This document shows, one piece after another, positions 16,426-53,633 of a DNA stretch of 64,000 nucleotides. This DNA comes from Eledone cirrhosa (Eukaryota): the NCBI GenBank assembly GCA_964016885.1, contig OZ024741.1:373550001-373614000 (forward strand), given 5' to 3'. A program made the translations under genes and the position numbers. The notes beneath the pieces are model-generated. The model was not told the DNA's origin. It saw nothing but the letters and a program-made list of their open reading frames with translations, and made no database searches. Each line of letters opens with the position of its first letter. Position 1 is the first letter of the stretch.

Positions 16426-18350
16426 TCATCATCATCATCTTCATCATCATTTTACGTCTGCTTTTCCCTGCTTGCAAGGGTGGGACGGGTCTTATTCAGC
16501 ACAGCATCTCTCCACTCGTCATGGTCCCTCGTCATCTCCACCGTGAGCTTCAATGATCTGAGGTCTGTTCTCACCACCTCCGCCCATGTTTTTCGTGGTC
16601 TACCTCTACCACGTCTTCCTTCAACTGGCATTTCCTGGCACTTCTTCACCCATCGGTCATCCTCCATGCACATCACATGTCCATACCACCTCAGTCTCCT
16701 CTCCCGTACACTACATTCTATCCCTCTCAGACACAGTTTCTCTCTCAACACATTTATGCTGGCTCGTTCACGCACATTTACACTGCACATCCAACGGAGC
16801 ATGCTTGCCTCATTTCTCTCCAGCCGTCGCATATCCTCTGCAGTTGCTGCCCATGTCTCACTACCATGCAGCATCGCGCTCCTCACACAGGCATCATACA
16901 ACCGGCCTTTCGTACGCAGAGAGAAACCCTTCTTCGTCAACAGAGGAAGCAGCTCCCTAAACTTCTTCCAACCCGTCCTTATTCTAGATACTATGGCTTC
17001 TAGATACTATGGCCACATAGATGATAATTGGAATTTCTTACGTGACAACTTACTGCAGGCTACTGATGAAACTTGTGGCTAGAGCAGAGCTCCAACCAGA
17101 CAGAGAGTGACCTGGTGGTGGAACAGCACGGTAGATAGGGCCATTAGAGACAAAAGACTAGCATGGAAGACTTGGAAAATCGGTGGGAGTAGAGAAGGAT
17201 ATACAGTCGCTAAGAGAGAAGCTAGACGTCAGGTGTACTTAGCACGCAGGGTGGCTGAGAGTAGAAGGTTTGCCAATGTTCTGCAACAAGAAGATCAGAG
17301 ACGTGCGGTGTTCTACATTGCAAGGCAGTGTGTCAATGCAAATCAGGATGTTGTTGGAGATAAATGTGTCCGGAATGATGGCGGTCTACTTAGTGTCACG
17401 AATGAACAGAAAAAGGAGGCCTGGAATGTCATTATGAGAGACTGTTGAATGTAGAGAACGAATGGGATAGAAAGAAATTACCCTCAGTAGATCCGACAGA
17501 GTGACCAGCTATTGAGATTGACGAATATAGGGTCCAGGAGGCGATTAAGGAAATGAAAAATGATAAGGCCGCTGGACCGTCAGGGATAGTTGATGAGATG
17601 CCGAAGGCATCAGGGGACGTAGGCACTAAACTGGTTGCACGCATCATCAATCAGGCTATATATGGCGGTGTCATACCCAGACTGGTGCAGCAGTATTCTC
17701 ATAAATTGCTACAAAGGTAAAGGGGATGCTGTGGAGAGGAGCAATTATAGGGGTATAAAACTGATGGATCAGGTTATAAAAGTGGCAGAAAGGATATTAG
17801 CACAACTAATTAGAGAAAGGGTCAAACTAGATGAGATGCAGTTTGGTTTTGTGCCTGGGAAAAGTACAACAGATGCCCTCTTCTTGGTGAGACAATTACA
17901 AGAGAAGTTCTTAGTAAAGAATAAGCCACTATACTTAGCTTTTGATAGGGTACCCCGATCTGTCATCTGGTGGTCCCTAAGGAAACTAGGTGTTGAGGAA
18001 TGGCTTGTGAGGACAGCGCAAACTTTGTACAGAGGTGCTGTCAGTAATGTCAGGGTAGGAATGGAGTTTAGTGAGGAATTCCAGATACAAGTAGGAGTAC
18101 ATCAGGGTTCAGTCCTCAGCCCACTCTTGTTCAAGCCATGACAGAGGAGTTTAAGACTGGCTGTCCATGCGATTTTCTCTATGCTGACGATCTGGTTCTT
18201 ATAGCAGAATCAGTAGAGGAGCTAGAGAATAAATTCTGGCTATGGAAACAGAAGTTGGAAGCAAGAGGACTGAGAGTGAACCTAGATAAGACAAAAGTGC
18301 TGATGAGTATAAAAAGAGGACAAAACTCTGATTTCGTCAGGGAAATGGCC
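16426..18350. mobile_element. RTE family 2 insertion with 5' inversion: 3' part on minus (16426-16997), upstream part on plus (~17010-18350)
   Basis: Minus ORF 16452-16940 ends [13 protein letters not shown] next to the (GAT)n tail; plus ORFs have TWWWN, NYRGIKL, GVHQGSVLSP and YADD. Confidence 0.88.
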
Positions 18351-23751: not shown

Positions 23752-23960
23752 AGTGAGTGAATTTGTCACTACTTTAAAACAATAGCTTACGGTCTTCAAA
23801 ATGCTTTTAATTAAGCATAAAGTGTATTGCAAAATACATTATATATACATCCATATATATATATATAAATACATATATAAATAAATACATATACATATAT
23901 ATATATATATAAATACATATACATATATATGTATATATACATATATATATAAATACATAT

Positions 23961-26932
23961 ATGGTCACGTTGGACAACATTGTGACGGCTACGACGAAAT
24001 CCATGGAGGCTATGGGTTTGGTACTAGAAATGAGGAAGGCTCCAGAATCCTGGAATTCTGTGATGCAAATAACCTAACTATCTGTAACACTAACTTCAAA
24101 AAACGTGACAATCACCTGATCACCTATAGATCCGGGGAACACACAAGCCAGGTAGATTATATCCTTACCAGAAGACGTGACAGAGTGTCTGTTGTTAACA
24201 CTAAATCCCTCCCCCATGAAGAATGCACCTCCCAACATAGACTGATAATTAGCGACCTCATAGTCAGGACGAGACGTACTCGACAACAGAAGAGGACTAT
24301 CCTCAGGAGGAAAATATGGAAGCTAAAGGACCCCACAGCCAGGAATAAATTTCAAAGCATATTACTTGATGCTTTCGACAGTAAGGAAGAACATTTAGAG
24401 TCGGACAATATAGAGGGAGAGTGGGAATTTCTGAAAGCAAACCTGCTGTTGGCGACAGACGAAGTCTGTGGCTGGAGCAGGCCTGTAGGCAGGAGGAGAG
24501 TAACATGGTGGTGGAACAGTAAGGTGGAGGGGTCAATTAAGGCCAAAAAGCAGGCTTGGAAAGTATGGCGGGATGGGGGAAGTAGAGAGGACTATCAAGT
24601 GGCCAGGAGGGAAGCTAGGAGACAAGTGTACTTAGCAAGAAGGGAAGCTGAGGAAAGAAAGTTCAAGCATGTTCTACAACGCGATGACCAAAAACGTGAG
24701 GTGTTCAGGATTGCTAGGCAATGCGTCAAGGAAAACCGTGATATTGTCGGGGAGAAGTGTGTACTAAACGACGATGGCACACTTGCCATCACCGACGCTG
24801 ATAAGAAGGTAGCTTGGAAGTGTCACTATGAAAGGCTACTAAATGAGGAGAATAATTGGGAGAAAGGCAGTCTCCCCCATATCGACCCAATAGAGGGACC
24901 AGCAGTGTTAGTCGAGGGGAGTATAATAAGTAAGGCAATCAAGGATATGAAGACGGGTAAGGCGGCTGGGCCTTCGGAAATAGTTGCTGAGATGCTGAAG
25001 GCATCTGGCACGGTGGGACACACCATGGTCACCCGCATAGTTAACCAAGTCGTACAGAATGGGGTTGTTCCGAAGGACTGGCATAGCAGCATCATCGTTA
25101 ACTGTTATAAGGGTAAAGGAGACGCCCTAGATAGGAGTAACTATAGAGGCATTAAATTAATCGACCAGGTCATGAAGGTCACGGAAAAAGTAATAGCGCA
25201 ACTAATCAGAGAGAGAATTGACCTAGATGAAATGCAGTTCGGGTTTGTGTCAGGCAAAAGTACCACAGACGCTCTTTTCATAGTACGACAACTACAGGAG
25301 AAGTACCTAGCTAAAGGTAAACCCCTCTACTTAGCTTTTGTCGACTTGGAGAAAGCCTTCGACAGAGTCCCCCGCTCCATTATCTGGTGGGCTCTTAGAA
25401 AACTAGGCGTTGACGAATGGCTTGTGAGGGCTATACAAGCCATGTATAAAGAAACAGTCAGCAAGGTTAGAATTAACAACGAATATAGTGAAGAGTTTAG
25501 CGTAAAAGTTGGCGTCCATCAGGGCTCTGTTCTCAGCCCACTACTATTTATTATTGCCCTTCAGGCTATAACAGAGGAGTTCAAGACAGGCTGCCCATGG
25601 GAACTCCTATACGCAGACGACCTGACACTCATAGCGGAATCAATGGCCGAGCTAGAGAAGGAATTCCAAACATGGAAGCACGGCCTAGAGTCAAAAGGAC
25701 TTAAAATTAACCTGGCTAAGACCAAAGTACTAGTTTGTAGGAAAGAAAACAAGGCGGCGGTCCCTTCTGGGAAATGGTCGTGCTCGGTGTGTAGGAAAGG
25801 CGTAGGTAGAAACTCCATTTTATGTCCTAAATGCAAAGTATGGGTGCATAAAAGATGTAGTGGGATCACAGGTAAGCTAACTAAGAACATAGATTTTACA
25901 TGTGGCCGGTGCTCTGGTGCAATAAGTAGCAGCAAGTGCCCACAAACTACTAGCTCTTTCAATTGCGCAGAGGGTTCTATAGAAATAGTGGACAGCTTCC
26001 GTTACCTGGGCGATAAAATCAGCAGTGGGGGAGGGTGCTCTGAAAGTACTGTAGCTAGAGTCAGAACTGGTTGGAAAAAGTTCAGAGAGCTTATACCACT
26101 ATTAGCTGCTAAAGGGTTCTCACTAAAAATGAAAGGCAGGTTGTACGATGCCTGCATACGAACAGCAATGCTGCATGGCAGTGAGACCTGGGCATTGTGT
26201 GCAGAGGATATACGCAGACTAGAGAGGAACGAAGCTTGCATGCTCCGCTGGATGTGTAACAGTAATATACGTGAACGGCAAAGCATAAACGAACTAAGGA
26301 AAAAATTAGAGATAAGAGGGATCAGATGTTGTTTACTCGAGAGAAGGCTACGTTGGTATGGACACGTGATGCGTATGAAAGTCGATAGCTGTATAACAAA
26401 GTGCAGGGCAATAAAGATAGACGGTAGCCACGGAATAGGCAGACCTAGAAAAACCTGGGACGAGCTGATAAACTCCGACCTCACACACTTACACCTCTCC
26501 AAGACAATGTCACTGGACCGAGACCTTTGGCGGTACTCAGTAACAGAGAAGACCCGCCTTGCCAGTAGGCATCTCTAACAAAATACACCCCGTCCCGCCA
26601 CCTCCCCCACCCATCCACACCACCCGTCCTATGTAAAGTTATGTTGGTGCCGCGCCATCCAGGCCGAAACAAATGAGATCGTGTAGGTGTCACGACAAAA
26701 AAACACACAGTCCACGCTGTAATGTGGCCGTGTAGGCAACACGGTAAAAACCTCCCAGACCCACACTGTAAATGTGGTTGGTGTTAGGAAGGGCATCCAA
26801 CTGTAGAAAACCTGCCAGACAGTCCTATGCGAGCAAGACAATCACTCTTGCCTCAAGTGGGACTACCCCCGTCCAAACCCATGCAAGCGTGGAACACGGA
26901 CGTTAAACGTTGATGATGATGATGATGATGAT
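23961..26932 (+). mobile_element. RTE family 1 LINE, truncated within APE; uninterrupted RT-PHD ORF; small deletion removes the normal stop codon
   Basis: 797-aa ORF, 3' UTR and (GAT)n tail. Confidence 0.96.
24185..26578 (+). CDS. RTE polyprotein (end of APE, RT, embedded C4HC3 PHD finger at 25781-25912)
   Basis: NYRGIKL, QFGF, DLEKAFD, QGSVLSP, YADD, CSVC-x10-CPKC-x4-HKRC-x14-CGRC, FRYLG. Confidence 0.92.
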   Translation: MSVVNTKSLPHEECTSQHRLIISDLIVRTRRTRQQKRTILRRKIWKLKDPTARNKFQSILLDAFDSKEEHLESDNIEGEWEFLKANLLLATDEVCGWSRPVGRRRVTWWWNSKVEGSIKAKKQAWKVWRDGGSREDYQVARREARRQVYLARREAEERKFKHVLQRDDQKREVFRIARQCVKENRDIVGEKCVLNDDGTLAITDADKKVAWKCHYERLLNEENNWEKGSLPHIDPIEGPAVLVEGSIISKAIKDMKTGKAAGPSEIVAEMLKASGTVGHTMVTRIVNQVVQNGVVPKDWHSSIIVNCYKGKGDALDRSNYRGIKLIDQVMKVTEKVIAQLIRERIDLDEMQFGFVSGKSTTDALFIVRQLQEKYLAKGKPLYLAFVDLEKAFDRVPRSIIWWALRKLGVDEWLVRAIQAMYKETVSKVRINNEYSEEFSVKVGVHQGSVLSPLLFIIALQAITEEFKTGCPWELLYADDLTLIAESMAELEKEFQTWKHGLESKGLKINLAKTKVLVCRKENKAAVPSGKWSCSVCRKGVGRNSILCPKCKVWVHKRCSGITGKLTKNIDFTCGRCSGAISSSKCPQTTSSFNCAEGSIEIVDSFRYLGDKISSGGGCSESTVARVRTGWKKFRELIPLLAAKGFSLKMKGRLYDACIRTAMLHGSETWALCAEDIRRLERNEACMLRWMCNSNIRERQSINELRKKLEIRGIRCCLLERRLRWYGHVMRMKVDSCITKCRAIKIDGSHGIGRPRKTWDELINSDLTHLHLSKTMSLDRDLWRYSVTEKTRLASRHL

Positions 26933-27193: not shown

Positions 27194-27796
27194 TACAATA
27201 TTAAATAAATGGAAAACTATATTTATAAAACCATATTTATTTCATTATATATATTTCGGGGATATCATATTAACAATATGCTATGCCTTCATCAGACAAA
27301 ATACAATATAAACAGTTTTATAGATAAATATATTCGACATACCGTAATAAACATCAACTTCATTTGAAGAGGTTTACGCTAGCAGTGAAAATACAGAGAG
27401 AAAGAAAGAGAGAAAGAAAAGAGGGAAAAAAGAAAGAAAGAAAGACAAAACGTTTTGTCTTTCTTTCTTTCTTTTTTCCCTCTTTTCTTTCTCTTTTTCT
27501 TTCTCTCTGTATTTTCACTGCTAGCGTAAACCTCTTCAAATGAAGTTGATGTTTATTACGGTATGTCGAATATATTTATCTATAAAACTGTTTATATTGT
27601 ATTTTGTCTGATGAAGGCATAGCATATTGTTAATATGATATCCCCGAAATATATATAATGAAATAAATATGGTTTTATAAATATAGTTTTCCATTTATTT
27701 AATATTGTAAATATACTCCAAATATTTGTCGAGTGCTTTTATATCAGTTATAAATATTTACTAGTTGTAACCCAACAATTTTAAATATAACCTTAC
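27194..27796. mobile_element. Spacer-less palindromic PLE-type remnant (centre ~27451) with hammerheads at 27238-27303 (-) and 27600-27665 (+) and a ~87-bp unpaired tail
   Basis: Arms are reverse complements around GACAAAACGTTTTGTC; CTGATGA..GAAA-TATATA-TA. Confidence 0.8.
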
Positions 27797-44183: not shown

Positions 44184-47100
44184 ATCATCATCATCATCAT
44201 CATCAGGTTTAGCGTCCGTGTTCCACGCTTGCATGGGTTTGGACGGGGGTTTTCCCACTTGAGGCAAGAGTGGTTGTCTTGCTCGCATAGGACTGTCTGG
44301 CGGGTTTTCTACAGTTGGATGCCCTTCCTAACACCAACCACATTTACAGTGTGGGGCTGGGAGGTTTTTACCGTGTTGCCTACACGGCCACATTACAGCG
44401 TGGACTGTCTGGCGGGTTTTCTACAGCTGGATGCCCTTCCTAACACCAACCACATTTACAGTGTGGGGCTGGGAGGTTTTTACCGTGTTGCCTACACGGC
44501 CACATTTACAGCGTGGACTGTGTGTTTTTTGTCGTGACACCTACACGATCTCATTTGTTTCGGCCTGGATGTTGTGGGACCAACATAACTTTACATTGAA
44601 AGGGGCGGTGTGGGTGGGGTGGAGGGTGGTGGGACGGGGGTGTGTTTTGATAGAGATGCCTACTGACTGTAGTAGGTTTTTACTTTGTATTTAGGTAAGG
44701 CGGGTCTTCTCTATTACTGAGTACCGCCAAAGGTCTCGGTCCAGTGACATTGTCTTGGAGAGGTGTAAGCGTGTGAGGTCGGAATTTATCAGCTCGTCCC
44801 ATGTTTTTCTGGGTCTGCCTACTCCGTGGCTACCGTCTATCTTTATTGCCCTGCACTTTGTTATACAGCTGTCGTCTTTCATGCGCATCACGTGACCGTA
44901 CCAACGTAGCCTTCTCTCGAGTAAACAACATCTGATCCCTCTTATTTCTAATTTTTTCCTTAGTTCGTTTATGCTTTGCCGTTCACGTATATTACTATTG
45001 CACATCCAGCGGAGCATGCAAGCTTCGTTCCTCTCTAGTCTGCGTATATCCTCTGCACACAATGCCCAGGTCTCACTGCCATGCAGCATTGCTGTTCGTA
45101 TGCAGGCATCGTATAACCTGCTTTCATTTTTAGGGAGAACCCTCTAGCGGCTAATAGTGGTATAAGCTCTCTGAACTTTTTCCATCCAGTTCTGACTCTA
45201 GCTACTGTACTTTCAGAGCACCCTCCCCCACTGCTGATTTTGTCACCCAGATAACGGAAGCTGTCCACTATTTCTATAGAACCCTCTGCGCAGTTGAAGG
45301 AGCTAGTATTTTGTGGGCACTTGCTGCTACTTATTGCACCAGAGCACCGGCCACATGTAAAATCTATGTTCTTAGTTAGCTTACCTGTGATCCCACTACA
45401 TCTTTTATGCACCCATACTTTGCATTTGGGACATAAAATGGAGTTTCTACCTACGCCTTTCCTACACACTGAGCATGGCCATTTCCCCGATGGGACCGCC
45501 GCCTTATTTTCTTTCCTACAAACTAGAACTTTAGTCTTAGCCAGGTTAATTTTAAGGCCTTTTGATTCTAGGCCGTGCTTCCACGTTTGGAATTTCTTCT
45601 CTAGTTCGGTCATTGATTCAGCTATGAGCGTTAGATCATCTGCGTATAGGAGTTCCCATGGGCAGCCGGTCTTGAACTCCTCTGTTATAGCCTGAAGGGC
45701 AATAATAAATAGTAGGGGGCTAAGAACAGAGCCCTGATGGACACCAACTTTTACGCTAAACTCTTCACTATATTCGTTGTTAATTCTAACCTTACTGACT
45801 GTTTCTTTATACATGGCTTGTATAGCTCTCACAAGCCATTCGTCAACACCTAGTTTTCTAAGAGACCACCAGATAATGGAACGGGGGACTCTGTCGAAGG
45901 CTTTCTCCAAGTCGACGAAAGCTAAGTATAGGGGTTTACTTTTAGCTAGGTACTTCTCCTGTAGTTGTCGTACAATGAAAAGAGCGTCTGTGGTACTTTT
46001 GCCTGACACAAACCCGAACTGCATTTCATCTAGATCAATTCTCTCTCTGATTAGTTGCGCTATTACTTTTTCCGTGACCTTCATGACCTGGTCGATTAAT
46101 TTAATGCCTCTATAGTTACTCCTATCTAGGGCATCTCCTTTTCCCTTATAGCAGTTAACGATGATGCTGCTACGCCATTCCTTCGGAACAACCCCATTCT
46201 GTACGACTTGGTTAACTATCCGGGTGACCATGGTGTGTCCCACCAAACCAGAAGCCTTCAGCATCTCAGCAACTATTTCCGAAGGCCCAGCCGCCTTACC
46301 CGTCTTCATATCTTTGATTGCCTTACTTATTATACTACCTTCAACTAACACTGCTGGTCCCTCTATTGGATCGATCTGGGGGAGACTGTCTTTCTCCCAT
46401 TTGTTCTCCTCATTTAGAAGCCTTTCGTAGTGACACTTCCAAGCTACCTTCTTATCAGCGTCGGTGATGGCAAGTATGCCATCATCGTTAAGTACACACT
46501 TCTCCCCGACAATATCACGGTTTTCCTTGACACATTGCCTGGCAATCCTGAACACCTCACGTTTTTGGTCCTCACGTTGTAGAACATGCTTGAACTTTCT
46601 TTCCTCTGCTTCCCTTCTTGCGAAGTACACTTGTCTCCTAGCTTCCCTCCTGGCCACTTGATAGTCTTCTCTACTTCCCCCATCCCGCCATACTTTCCAA
46701 GCCTGCTTTTTGGCCTTAATTGACTCCTCCACCTTACTGTTCCACCACCATGTTACTCTCCTCCTACCTACAGGCCTGCTCCAGCCACAGACTTCGTCTG
46801 CCGCCGTCAGCAGGTTTGCTCTCAGGAATTCCCACTGTTCCTCTATATTATACGACTCTAATTGCTCTTCCTTACTCTCGAAAGCGTCAAGTAATATGCT
46901 TTGGAATTTATTTCTGGCTATGGGGTCCTTTAGCTTCCATATTTTTCTCCTGAGGATAGTCCTCTTCCGCTGTCTAGTACGTCTCGTCCTGACTATGAGG
47001 TCGCTAATTATCAGTCTATGTTGGGAGGTGAATTCTTCATGGGGGTGGGATTTAGTGTTAACAACAGACACTCTGTCACGTCTTCTGGTAAGGATATAAT

Positions 47101-48946: not shown

Positions 48947-51900
48947 TCATATATAAAGAGTCTTGCAAAGCTTCTTGGGCCAATGTACTCGCCGACCGCT
49001 ACGTGTGGTGGTGACATATGTAGGTGTAGGTGTGTGCGATGTTATATGTGTATTGTGGCTTGGCTGCTGCCAGGTGTATGTGGGGGGAAAATGGGGCTCT
49101 TGTGTGAGAGTGTCTGTATAGGCCCGTTTTACCCTGTCAATGGACACAGTCTCTTTTTTACCCCCAATGTCTAGGGTGAATAGCTTATCTGTGCGCTCAA
49201 GCACGCGATAGGGACCGGTATACGGTGGCATGAGAGGAGCTCTCACGGCGTCCTTTCGTAAAAAGACGTGGGTCCATGAAGCAATGTCTTTCGGGACCGA
49301 AGATTTGATTGTCTGTTGGCGAGGGTGCATAGGCGGAAGATTGCTGAAATATGATTGCAGTCTGCTCACATACAGAGCTGGGTCTGTTGCTGGTAGGTCC
49401 AATGGAGCTAACATCTGACCAGGCAGAGATATAGGCACTCCGTAAACCAACTCGGCGGGGGAGTAGCCTAGATCTTCCCTGATGGCTGCACGACAGCCCA
49501 GGAGGACAATTGGTACATATTCGCTCCACCGCTGCTGATCCGGATAAGCGCGCAGTGCGGCTTTCAATTGGCGGTGGAAGCGTTCAATCATTCCGTTAGA
49601 AGCTGGATGGTAGCTGGTCGTTCGAATGCGTTGCATTCCCAGGATCCTTGAGAGCTCTCGGAAAAGGTGTGACTCAAATTGTCCACCGCGGTCAGTGGTG
49701 ATAGTGGCTGGAACTCCGTAACACGATATCCAACCCGATACTAGGGCTCGCGCTACAGATTCCGTCGAAATGTCACTTAAAGGAATGGCTTCAGGCCAAC
49801 GTGTGAAGCGATCTATGCAGGTCAGGAGGTATGTAAATCCTCGGCTGACCGGCCATGGTCCGACAAGATCTATATGGACATGGCTGAACCGAGCGTCTGG
49901 AGTGCTGAAAGTTCCAAGGGGTGCGCGAATGTGTTTGTGCACCTTTGACTTTTGGCAGGATAGGCAGGAACGTGTCCAGGCAGTGATGTCACGCCTCATA
50001 TTAGGCCAGAAGAATCTAGCCGAAATGAGCTTCACTGTGGTCGATATTCCAGGGTGTGCCAGACCGTGCAAGGTGTCGAAAACTGCTCGACGATGAGTCA
50101 CTGGCACTAGAGGGCGAGGTGCATCTGCCGACGTGTCGCAGATAATCTGTGTGTCCGAAGTGGGTACAGGCAGATATGCAAATTTGCCAGTTGCAAATTC
50201 AGAAGACGAGAGGTCCAAAGTATCCAGAGGTGGTTGTTCTGTGGCCATTCGTTGGAGGTCGATTTCCGCTGGCGATGACAGGGAATTAATTGGGAGGCGA
50301 GACAGTGCATCTGCCGCCGCATTCTGTTCACCAGAGATGTGTCGGATATCGCTGGTAAATTGCGAAACGAAGTCCAAGTGGCGAGTTTCGCGAGGTGAAT
50401 ATTTGTCCGGCTTAGAACGCAGTGCGAACGTAAGCGGACGGTGGTCAGTGTATATAACAAATTGGCGACCCTCCAGTGAATGCCGAAAGTGTTTCACTGC
50501 AAGGTACATAGCCAAGAGTTCACGGCCGAATGTGCTATACCGTGTTTCTGCAGGCTTCAGCTGTTTAGAAAAGTAGGCAAGAGGTTGTAACTGTTGTTGG
50601 TGATGTTGTTGCAGTACTGCACCTACAGCCGTGCCTGATGCATCAACAACCAGTGAAAACTGGGCACCAGACACAGGATGTGCAAGCAGTGATGTCTCCG
50701 CAAGCTTCCGCTTCACTTCGTCGAAGGCTTTTAGCTGATTCGTGTCCAATGAAATGGAATCGTTCTTCCTTTTCCTGTTACGTAACAGGTCGGACAGAGG
50801 AGACAGGAGATCCGCACAGTGTGGGATAAAGCGCCTGTAATAGTTCAGTAGCCCAAGGAAATGTCGTAGTTGACGAAGTGAAGTGGGTGGTTGGAGGTCT
50901 TGTACCGCTTTCACTTTATCAGGTAGTGGCGAAATTCCTTCTGGGCTGATGACATGGCCCAAGAAGACAAATGAGGAAGCACCGAAAACACATTTTGCCG
51001 GATTAATTCTCACTTGGTATTTTTGAAATCTCTCGAACAGGAGACGGAGGTGAGTGACATGTTCCTCAGGTGAGGCACTTGCCACAAGAATGTCGTCGAT
51101 GTAGTTGTACACGAAGTCTAAATCGCGCACAACTTCATCCATAAATCGTTGGAACGTGCTGGCTGCGTTTCGCAAACCGAAAGGCATGGTCAAAAATTCA
51201 AACGCTCCAAATGGAGTTGTTACTGCAGTTTTAGGTATGTCTGCCGGGTTCACCGGGATTTGGTGGTATGCTTTGACCAAATCCAATTTGGAGAATATGT
51301 TGCATCCATGCAGCGAAGATGCAAAATCCTGTATGTGTGGTATCGGGTAGCGGTCGGGTACCGTCATTGCATTTAACCGCCGAAAGTTCCCAGTGGGACG
51401 CCAATCACCGGAACGCTTTGGTACCAAATGCAAGGGTGCGGCCCACAGGCTTGAGGATGGGCGAATGATCCCGAGCTGCAGCATGTGATTGAATTCAGCC
51501 TTTGCGGCCTTCAGTTTCTCAGCAGAGAGACGGCGAGGGCGCGAAAACACAGGAGCTCCGGATGTTTCAATGTGGTGCTTGGTGGAGTGAGTAAACTCAC
51601 TCATCACAAAATTCAAATTTGTTAATTCCGGGAAGGAATGCAAAAGTGATTGGTAAGGATCTTCTGTAGCAGCGATAAAGAAGACCGGGCTGACCGACGA
51701 GACAGTCGATCTGGTACCCGGCACAGACAGTTCTGTGTTGGCATCCAACAACCGGTGTCTGCTCATATCCACTATCAAGTTATAGTGGTGCAGGAAATCT
51801 GAGCCTAGGATGGGGTAAGGCAGATCAGCAACAGTGAAGATCCACGTGAAATCTCTACGCAATTCCAGGTTCAAAGAACGAGAAATCTGACCGTACGTGG

Positions 51901-52126
51901 GGATCGGTGACTGGTTTACTGCTTGCAGAGAGACGGTTGAGAGTTGGGGCTTCTCTTTGAGAAGTTTTAGCGGCCAAATGCTACAAGCCGCGCCGGTGTC
52001 GATCAGACAACATGCTTGCGACTCAGTGTCTGTGATGAAAAACACACGGTTATTAGGGAGGGTCAGAGGAGACTGTGCCGTGCTCAGGTCTCCTGAAATC
52101 TGTTTCCCTGGCCTGAAAATGTACAA
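48947..52126 (-). CDS. pol: Gypsy Pol (protease, RT, RNase H, integrase), intact; probably expressed by -1 frameshift
   Basis: LIDTGA, YIDD, DAS..ELLA..TDH..ADALSR, HHCC, DDE, GPY. Confidence 0.95.
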
Positions 52127-52992
52127 GGCTGTTTACAGGAGCGTGCTGCTGCGCCAAAACGGCTGTGGTAGTAACACAAACCTGAACTGCTTGTGTGACG
52201 GCGTCGTGGCGAGGGTGAACGGCTCTGGAAGCGGCGTCTGGGCGAATGAGCCCTGTGAGTGCTTAGTTTTCTCACTTCCTTGGTTAGCTGCTCTATTGCT
52301 TGCAGCATTGCTGCATTTGCAAGTGACTGGTCGGTATAACTGGCAGCCGCTGGAGTGAAGGAAGCGACCGCAGTCGGCGGCTGGGATACATTGACGGAGA
52401 CAGGAGTGAACGGATTGACCGCAGCCGGTGGCTGGGGTGCCTGGAAGGGGGCAGGAGAGAACGGATTGACCGCAGCCGGTGGCTGAGGTGCCTGGAAGGG
52501 GGCAAATGAGGCTGGGTGTCCGATGACACTCATAACCCTGTCGGCCGAAGCCGCTAGCTGGTCGACAGGAGCAGCCTCCATCATGGGCGCTAAGATCGCC
52601 TGAACTCCGGGGGGTAGCCTTGAGACAAAAAGCTGTCTAAGGAGGGCACTGTCAGCTGGGGCATCTTCCGCCAGCTCTCTCATCCGACGCAGTAGTTGTG
52701 TGGGCGTCCGATCACCCAAATGTTCGTCATTGACGAGTGTCTGACATTTTTTTTCTGCGGACAATGTGGTCCGCCGCAACACTTCGAGCTTCACGCTCTC
52801 ATAGGAGGCCCCAGGGCGAGGATCGGTAATTAAGTCTTTGACGACCGACGTCAATGACGCTGGAAAAGCGCTTAACAGGAGATTTAACTGTCTGTGGTCA
52901 CTGGTGATGTTATTCGCTGTGAAATGTGCTTCTATCTGGGCGAACCAGACAGTGACGTCACCGGTAAACGGTGGCAATGAAGTGCTACCCAT
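52084..52992 (-). CDS. gag: Gypsy Gag with CYYH..C..C knuckle and a duplicated [15 protein letters not shown] segment
   Basis: [44 protein letters not shown]; first ATG at 52992. Confidence 0.9.
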
Positions 52993-53633
52993 TGTGTATA
53001 CTGATGTAAAAGCAAAGGGCAAAGAAAGGACAACTCTGCACTTGTCACCGAGACAAAAGTGAAAATTCAGGCCAAGAAAATATATAATCCGAGTGAAGGA
53101 CAGAAAAAGAAAAATATATCAAAAACAATGTTGGAGGGGAAAAACGTCAAGCTTTAAAAAAAAAAAATTATGATTTATCTTTGTCCTATTATTTTTTTTT
53201 TTTTGTGTACTTTTCAAAATGGCGTTGCCTCCGTCGTTTTGGCGGGAAAACAGCTGAAGAAGACGGAAGTCGGCCATCCTGCTCTGACCGGCTATCAGCA
53301 CCAACAGTTTTTTTTTTTTTTTTTTTTCAGAAATTGAGAGGGAAATTGAGAGGGAAAAATAAGATTTTTGTATTAACGCATGTGTTCGGTGATGTTAGAA
53401 AGTGAAGGTGTGATGTGCAGATTTAGTAACAATAAGACAATATATCAAATACATATTAGGACTCACGCTAATCGCGTACATACCCCGAGAAAAGGCGAGT
53501 GGCTTTGTTTTTTCTTTTTTTGGGGGGGATGCGAAATGTTGATGTGTTCGTTGCAACGGAAAGATGTGGTTTCTTCTGTGTTGATGTCCTTAAACGTTCG
53601 GGTCACCATTTATAATGTGATTTGTTGTATCGT

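Follow-up and report, generated by a model that had tools for sequence, protein, structure and literature searches.

Ribozymes of the twister T-variant type lie at the 5′ end of the RTE element Perere-3 (Liu et al. 2021, PMC8501958), and HDV-like ribozymes have been reviewed as IRES-like leaders (PMC6765202). In the accessible parts of these two papers, cleaved ribozymes are reported to be sufficient for translation and the ribozyme-cleaved RTE RNA to be without a cap. Pieces of RTE 5′ UTRs also recur in SINEs (PMC5786205). In the 3′ UTR of R2Tg, a pseudoknot is bound by the R2 protein for TPRT; the element is the last 67 nt, described as necessary and sufficient in the accessible part of that paper (PMC12222951). 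For the central domains of SINEs, including the CORE-SINE domain of the MIR family, the functions are called unknown in the accessible text of Nishihara 2016 (PMC4824008). Leader pieces of RTEs within SINEs, RTEs headed by ribozymes and the R2 3′ pseudoknot are already published.

Here we analyse a 64,000-nt stretch of the Eledone cirrhosa genome (the window; contig OZ024741.1, positions 373,550,001 to 373,614,000, forward strand), in which a sequence-only reading had proposed a tandem array of H-type pseudoknots shared by a LINE 3′ UTR and a SINE. In the literature searched we found no account of these folds, nor of any pseudoknot in the leaders or tails of RTEs or in CORE domains; most subscription papers, Repbase and figures lie outside that coverage, and unreadable supplements could describe one.

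Copies were gathered from ~1.6 Mb of stretches of the 3.0 Gb genome. Some stretches were picked as repeat-rich or by pattern, so module counts do not represent a random sample. LINE1, LINE2 and family 3 are working labels for the three autonomous families examined.

Results

A tandem cassette in the 3′ UTR of a LINE

The flagged array lies in the 3′ UTR (26579-26910, +) of a LINE1 copy. The 5′-truncated ORF of this copy (23885..26578, +) encodes an RT and a PHD-like zinc finger, the latter directly following the RT domain in all LINE1 ORFs scanned (here at ~25780-25915, ORF residues ~633-676). From the single APE-RT ORF, the type of tail and the leader similarity we infer that LINE1 is RTE-type. 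As read from the sequence, the element ends in a stem-loop and an RTE-type (TGA)n tail (26870..26931, +) and carries no poly(A), in line with the earlier claim. This end would likely serve as the RT docking signal; a related tail is common to family 3, where it has no cassette. The 3′ edge of the LINE1 cassette is ~95 nt ahead of the tail repeat.

The cassette consists of (A+B)n followed by module C. In LINE1 the order is A1-B1-A2-B2-C, which confirms the proposed alternation of two modules ahead of a hairpin region and places it downstream of an RT ORF. A1 (26679..26706, +) is a predicted H-type pseudoknot with a 5-bp stem 1, a 3-nt loop 1, a 4-bp stem 2, no loop 2 and a 7-nt A-rich loop 3. 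B1 (26707..26727, +) can be drawn as a hairpin or an H-type pseudoknot of 4+4 bp, in which stem 2 covaries and stem 1 is nearly invariant. A2 (26728..26755, +) is a decayed A with a predicted 7-bp hairpin and a loop-downstream stem of at most 3 bp, and B2 (26756..26777, +) has 3+5 bp. C (26778..26816, +) is a putative bulged hairpin (26783-26801) whose six-base loop (26790-26795) can pair with 26813-26816. A residual ATG (26827..26829, +) lies 10 nt past C, the spacing of the start codon in the leaders described below.

At 3210-3299 and 2290-2430 we find the copies attributed earlier to a SINE and to another subfamily. Additional units do exist at 430-710, 31340-31578, 39430-39700 and 44290-44520, but as duplications of the whole cassette, C included, that measure 112 or ~140 nt. 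Elsewhere in the window are two long near-perfect inverted repeats (27378-27525 and 35723-35810), another APE-RT LINE ORF (32056-34392, −) and an LTR-type pol ORF with RT, RNase H and integrase (48947-53118, −), with a further ORF upstream of the latter.

A mechanical search of the LINE1 stretch returned four abutting H-type-compatible folds, compared with a dinucleotide-shuffle mean of 1.4. This count was matched by 0/300 shuffles at minimum stems of 3/3 bp and 3/4 bp, and by 2/300 at 4/4, in a test that is post hoc and in which the tandem module copies are not independent. The same test was weak for the SINE stretch (37, 1 and 44 of 300 shuffles across three settings). H-type geometry (interleaved stems, a short loop 1, a loop 2 of 0-1 nt and a longer A-rich loop 3) was found in A1, B1, B2 and the A and B of the SINE; A2 did not fit it. 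Nested minimum-energy folding of the whole cassette stretch was no better than that of shuffles (z −0.01). In the SINE, nested folding favoured a 13-bp hairpin (z −1.83) that uses the downstream arm of A, B and the start of C, and in this model the hairpin competes with the predicted knots.

Abutting short H-type folds make up the upstream pseudoknot domain of tobamoviruses, and the HCV IRES has a pseudoknot ~10 nt ahead of its AUG. The cassette is analogous to both in layout only, with no Rfam match; of the likeness to viral 3′ pseudoknots that had been drawn, the architecture stands and nothing beyond it. Rfam returned nothing credible on the flagged cassette or the family-3 leader. No twister was reported in the cassette or among the 150 matches listed of 167 for the window, all of which were microsatellite-driven miRNA or snoRNA. 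A search of viral contigs for the cassette gave 0 matches.

Pairing support differs between modules

Sequence comparison gives uneven support for pairing in the cassette, moderate overall. We parsed 279 A+B units (0 in reversed controls), which fall into a few subfamily haplotypes. The outer pair of A stem 1 is U-A in 107 units, U-G in 71 and C-G in 54. The inner pair of A stem 2 is C-G in 103, U-G in 18 and U-A in 53, and is unpaired in 105, mostly A2 and leader units. A lineage with A-U in place of U-A in the loop pairing of A has 7,144 genome matches, and the partner U was present in 95 of the first 100 (by eye).

Across 13 representative haplotypes, 89% of the cells in the A+B stems were paired, with two-sided changes at 4 pairs. 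Five measures of these stems were equalled by 5, 28, 18, 34 and 10 of 500 shuffles (18-28 of 500 for the two-sided counts, with 28/500 for the number of two-sided pairs), and A stem 2 alone, at 80% paired, by 12-51 of 500 (24/500 for two-sided pairs); these figures are to be read in the knowledge that related sequences outdo such shuffles even without structure. Slid controls for A/B pairing were far lower. With controls that are borderline, there is moderate support for the first A module having retained both stems with several two-sided changes.

The pseudoknots claimed for module A are thus upheld for A1 and not for A2, where the loop-downstream register is broken at 3/5 positions, leaving the shifted short pairing and the 7-bp hairpin. 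Both young LINE lineages have a broken A2. The C-A mismatch of A2 stem 2 occurs in 22 LINE2 units, and mismatched A2 lineages have multiplied successfully (by eye, 57 of the first 100 among 2,501 matches).

In B, the middle pair of stem 2 is A-U in 1,493 and U-A in 47,954 matches genome-wide, compared with 271 for A-A and 519 for U-U. Among the first 100 U-U copies, about half retain an ancestral upstream letter; the data suggest that the U-U form is a short-lived intermediate, and the swap counts as one event. Across the 13 haplotypes, stem 1 of B changes only from C-G to U-G, and for this reason we show B as a hairpin and the knot as a proposal. The earlier statement that both pseudoknot stems covary therefore applies to A, in both of its stems, whilst B stem 1 has no two-sided change.

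We also considered where A and B might come from. A twister origin found no support: the best HMM match in 1.6 Mb had E 0.9, and most pairwise scores fell inside the shuffle range (at best 8-10/500 among 20 tests); only the last ~9 nt of B can be aligned to the 3′ strand of twister. Pistol and hammerhead were rejected, since by eye the cassette has none of the stems required by the consensus of those ribozymes. The likeness of A to the Deu/Nin SINE domain is by eye only.

Exact matches to a 22-base pattern in C number 98,436 in the genome; the reversed pattern, used as control, has 0. The final hairpin as first drawn is the nested minimum-energy fold of the LINE1 copy itself. It did not survive comparison of 18 haplotypes from several animals, being 80.6% paired with 431/500 shuffles as good. 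The alternative register, the bulged hairpin with a six-base loop, was 89.7% paired with 0/500 shuffles as good (18 haplotypes from the own genome and foreign contigs). One of its pairs is U-A in 11 and C-G in 7 haplotypes; another is U-G or U-A.

Because the pattern that selected the initial C haplotypes demanded the downstream partner, the loop pairing was retested without that filter. A loop partner of at least 3 bp, ending 14-21 nt downstream, was found in 13/15 foreign copies (perhaps five or six families) and 159/176 own copies. In four control windows further downstream, 2-4 of the 15 foreign copies had one. A 4-bp partner is possible in 9/15 foreign and 47/176 own copies. Because the C loop is invariant, stem 2 of C is a case of conservation, with no covariation. 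In three copies (530-560 and 39570-39610 (−) in the window, and L102), a variant of C was seen by eye in which two changes jointly abolish the bulge and leave the helix uninterrupted. In a comparison with the published Meta/MESC, V and Deu/Nin SINE domains, the C core did not turn up in the supplements of PMC4824008 and PMC4758252 so far as they can be searched, which in each excludes one file.

A1 and C probably fold as predicted. The proposed structured tandem cassette is retained in so far as A1, B stem 2 and C appear to be under pairing constraint; its description as a native 3′-end device is not.

The cassette as probable start-codon-proximal leader sequence

Comparison with related elements makes it very probable that the cassette is start-codon-proximal RTE leader sequence. 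We read it in this way because the same modules precede an in-frame ATG in the sister family 3, and C does so in the RTEs of other animals. In family 3, the cassette lies directly ahead of an in-frame ATG in 12/12 loci picked by ORF start, one of them the query's own locus. The order in this leader is a Ceph-like RTE domain, (D+A+B)n, C and an ATG 6-7 nt later, and of 32 own loci scanned, 8 distinct ones have a start ATG whose frame stays open into the endonuclease domain. Upstream of the cassette, the leader resembles the published RTE 5′-UTR/Ceph domain by eye (PMC5786205). Module D, found before each A, has a G/C stem and a 9-nt loop that can pair with a tract ~15 nt downstream (L190:1383-1425 and 1474-1518; L188-L217). 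For one of its pairs, 17 of 41 units have A-U and 16 have G-C, which is one difference between two paralogous units.

At its 3′ end, family 3 runs from ORF to tail without a cassette, as in the window copy (16428..16995, −). Seven of the eight copies examined reach the family-3 end in this form, one of the seven matching only partly; the eighth is truncated. At least 29 distinct insert-free ORF-to-tail ends were recovered, and the youngest share 97-99% identity with the window copy; for the young copies it is the insert-free tail that was seen, the leader cassette being known from the 12 ORF-start loci. The cassette was absent from the 750 nt upstream of 13 LINE1/LINE2 endonuclease matches, at least 4 of which are cut off short of the UTR. 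All three autonomous families studied thus have the cassette at one end only.

In RTEs of other animals, C follows a twister ribozyme and precedes the start codon. Twister-P1 overlaps the 5′ edge of C in 5/12 foreign contigs scanned (E 7e-13 to 1e-3, all below gathering score). In 4 of these 5 contigs an ATG follows C after 9-11 nt, and in 2/5 it opens into the endonuclease domain. Taking family 3 and the foreign RTEs together, the distance from C to the in-frame AUG is 6-11 nt, a fixed short distance of the kind expected of an IRES-like leader. The exact canonical twister core has 0 matches in the own genome.

Twelve C-bearing stretches in bacterial genome records (L176-L187) resemble animal repeat DNA, both RTE leaders and SINEs, and are likely contamination. 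A contig filed in a bacterial MAG (L178:400-561, −) has a B-like fold whose stem-2 letters differ, followed by C and by a tail resembling that of LINE1. In old elements, a MESC/Meta-like domain stands directly ahead of C (window ~41650-41780, −; L089:6800-6960; L111-L117), and the same order was seen in metagenome contigs of another animal. Near-identical 3′ UTR copies also occur in sequencing runs labelled as 15 other organisms (X5-X19); in the three examined (X5, X15 and X19) they are short and of low depth; carry-over is likelier than transfer, and these contigs were left out of the analysis. A further run (X20) has diverged A, B and C and can only be guessed to be RNA; none of the sequencing runs listed is an RNA run with the cassette.

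Probable relocation to 3′ UTRs and a SINE

The SINE (3028..3348, +) is composed of a tRNA-like head, a CORE-like body, the cassette (A 3210-3239, B 3240-3259, C 3260-3299) and a family-3 tail. In LINE2 the cassette is in the 3′ UTR (2290..2430, +), and A2 stem 2 has the C-A mismatch. The UTRs of LINE1 and LINE2 can be aligned only over the cassette (81%) and the tail, and the cassette shows higher conservation than its flanks. Two-sided changes arose in the tail and SINE lineages, among them two transversion pairs. Old short elements fuse a D remnant, A, B, C and the tail (~7/25 loci by eye), and a D remnant and A follow one old RT end. A segment homologous to an RTE 5′ UTR is here joined to an RTE tail without an ORF, the make-up of a bipartite RTE-derived element. 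Copies that are 5′-truncated and start inside the cassette are common. At single loci, the 48-nt A+B unit forms arrays of hundreds to thousands of bases (L229-L232, L242, L083 and L054).

The arrangement parallels the bipartite route of Kojima 2018, with a leader piece on an RTE tail behind a tRNA head and a CORE-like body (PMC5786205). It differs in that the leader piece is another one, adjacent to the ATG, whose C core was not found in the text-readable supplement; in that it has also been captured by autonomous LINEs and tandemly amplified; and in that no pseudoknot is proposed in the accessible part of that paper. An internal deletion would have made a leader-plus-tail element, and template switching may then have moved this end onto an autonomous LINE and a CORE SINE. 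Slippage and unequal exchange would alter the unit number, with surplus units decaying or becoming minisatellites, whilst the relocated A1, B hairpins and C would have stayed more conserved than their flanks and gained two-sided changes.

The end of the SINE's CORE-like domain (3145..3170, +) has a two-stem architecture as in module B. The B layout fits 6/6 hand-picked CORE ends, with first stems of 3-5 bp and loops that vary (0-15 of 300 shuffles as good), and by eye it fits MIR1_AMi from Kojima's supplement, where the stem-2 letters differ. An HMM of B had no match in the CORE region. Pairwise similarity to the CORE end was significant for 1/8 B haplotypes, the SINE-type B (0/2000 shuffles, best of 8). 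From these sequences, a two-stem architecture common to B and the CORE ends of this genome's SINEs and of MIR1_AMi is plausible; common descent would be a further step.

Discussion

The reading that we prefer, and to which we give about even chances, is that a relocated leader cassette, still partly constrained, helps an uncapped and non-polyadenylated RNA to engage ribosomes. A1, the B modules and C are predicted still to fold as short stacked hairpins and pseudoknots, and a fold that keeps a short, constant spacing to the AUG across distant RTEs would most simply position the ribosome. Family 3 would have grown an array of such folds in its leader, in a genome without an exact canonical twister core. 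The closest parallels are Perere-3 and the HDV-like leaders (PMC8501958, PMC6765202), in which a ribozyme-headed, uncapped RTE RNA needs cap-independent initiation; C adjoins twister-P1 in five foreign contigs. The accessible parts of those papers credit the ribozyme itself, whereas in the present case ribozyme and ATG are separated by a distinct fold, C, which persists in this genome without an exact canonical twister core. A translation role of the cassette is credible, if tentative and somewhat short of even. The SINE is non-coding, therefore such a role there must mean ribosome association or hitch-hiking.

The cassette might instead be a site that the element's own protein binds regardless of position, serving RNP assembly or cis-preference, which we consider rather unlikely. 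It would account for a cassette found at one end only among the three families and kept in a non-coding SINE, and it has precedents in the recurrence of RTE 5′-UTR pieces in SINEs (PMC5786205) and in R2 proteins, whose targets are pseudoknots of both the 5′ region and the 3′ UTR according to the accessible parts of PMC6765202 and PMC12222951. However, the 6-11-nt distance from C to the ATG that is kept across animals is a better fit to ribosome positioning, and the common 5′-truncated copies that start inside the cassette imply priming at the tail.

It is unlikely, in our estimate, that the cassette in 3′ UTRs and the SINE is a passenger, that is, a leader-inherited structure in decay whose unit number is set by DNA slippage. 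Decay is apparent in A2 of both young LINE lineages, and slippage would fit the kilobase 48-nt arrays at single loci (L229-L232 and L242). The independent two-sided events are few, and SINE-type B, being like the SINE's own CORE end (0/2000 shuffles, best of 8 haplotypes), could reflect conversion. Against this, two-sided changes arose in the tail and SINE lineages, with two transversion pairs among them, and conservation between LINE1 and LINE2 is higher in the cassette than in its flanks.

An essential 3′ RT-recruitment or poly(A)-substitute domain, as the viral analogy had implied from abutting pseudoknots that precede the terminal structure of an RNA lacking poly(A), is very improbable because the tails of family 3, the youngest insert-free ends (97-99% identical to the window copy) included, have no cassette, and because the sequence is leader-derived. 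The likeness to R2Tg is likewise that of a pseudoknot in a non-LTR 3′ UTR; the R2Tg element is terminal in the accessible part of PMC12222951, whereas the cassette is non-terminal and absent from family-3 tails.

A broader reading, which we consider unlikely, returns to ribosome engagement: animal non-LTR retroelements may share a small kit of portable H-type pseudoknots that engage ribosomes from either end of the RNA. Within this kit, C would position the AUG behind an RTE 5′ ribozyme, and B would be an ancient CORE-SINE 3′ end kept, with compensatory changes, as far as amniote MIR. If true, this would explain the conservation of SINE 'body' domains.

RTE UTRs are being engineered for gene insertion, as described in the accessible part of PMC13708176, and a well-delimited element of such a UTR would have practical value. 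The cassette offers candidate folds of 20-40 nt with natural compensatory variants, and a natural experiment in which one cassette is found at the 5′ end in one family and at the 3′ end in two others. It bears on how ribozyme-cleaved, tailless RTE RNAs start translation, and on why the central domains of SINEs stay conserved.
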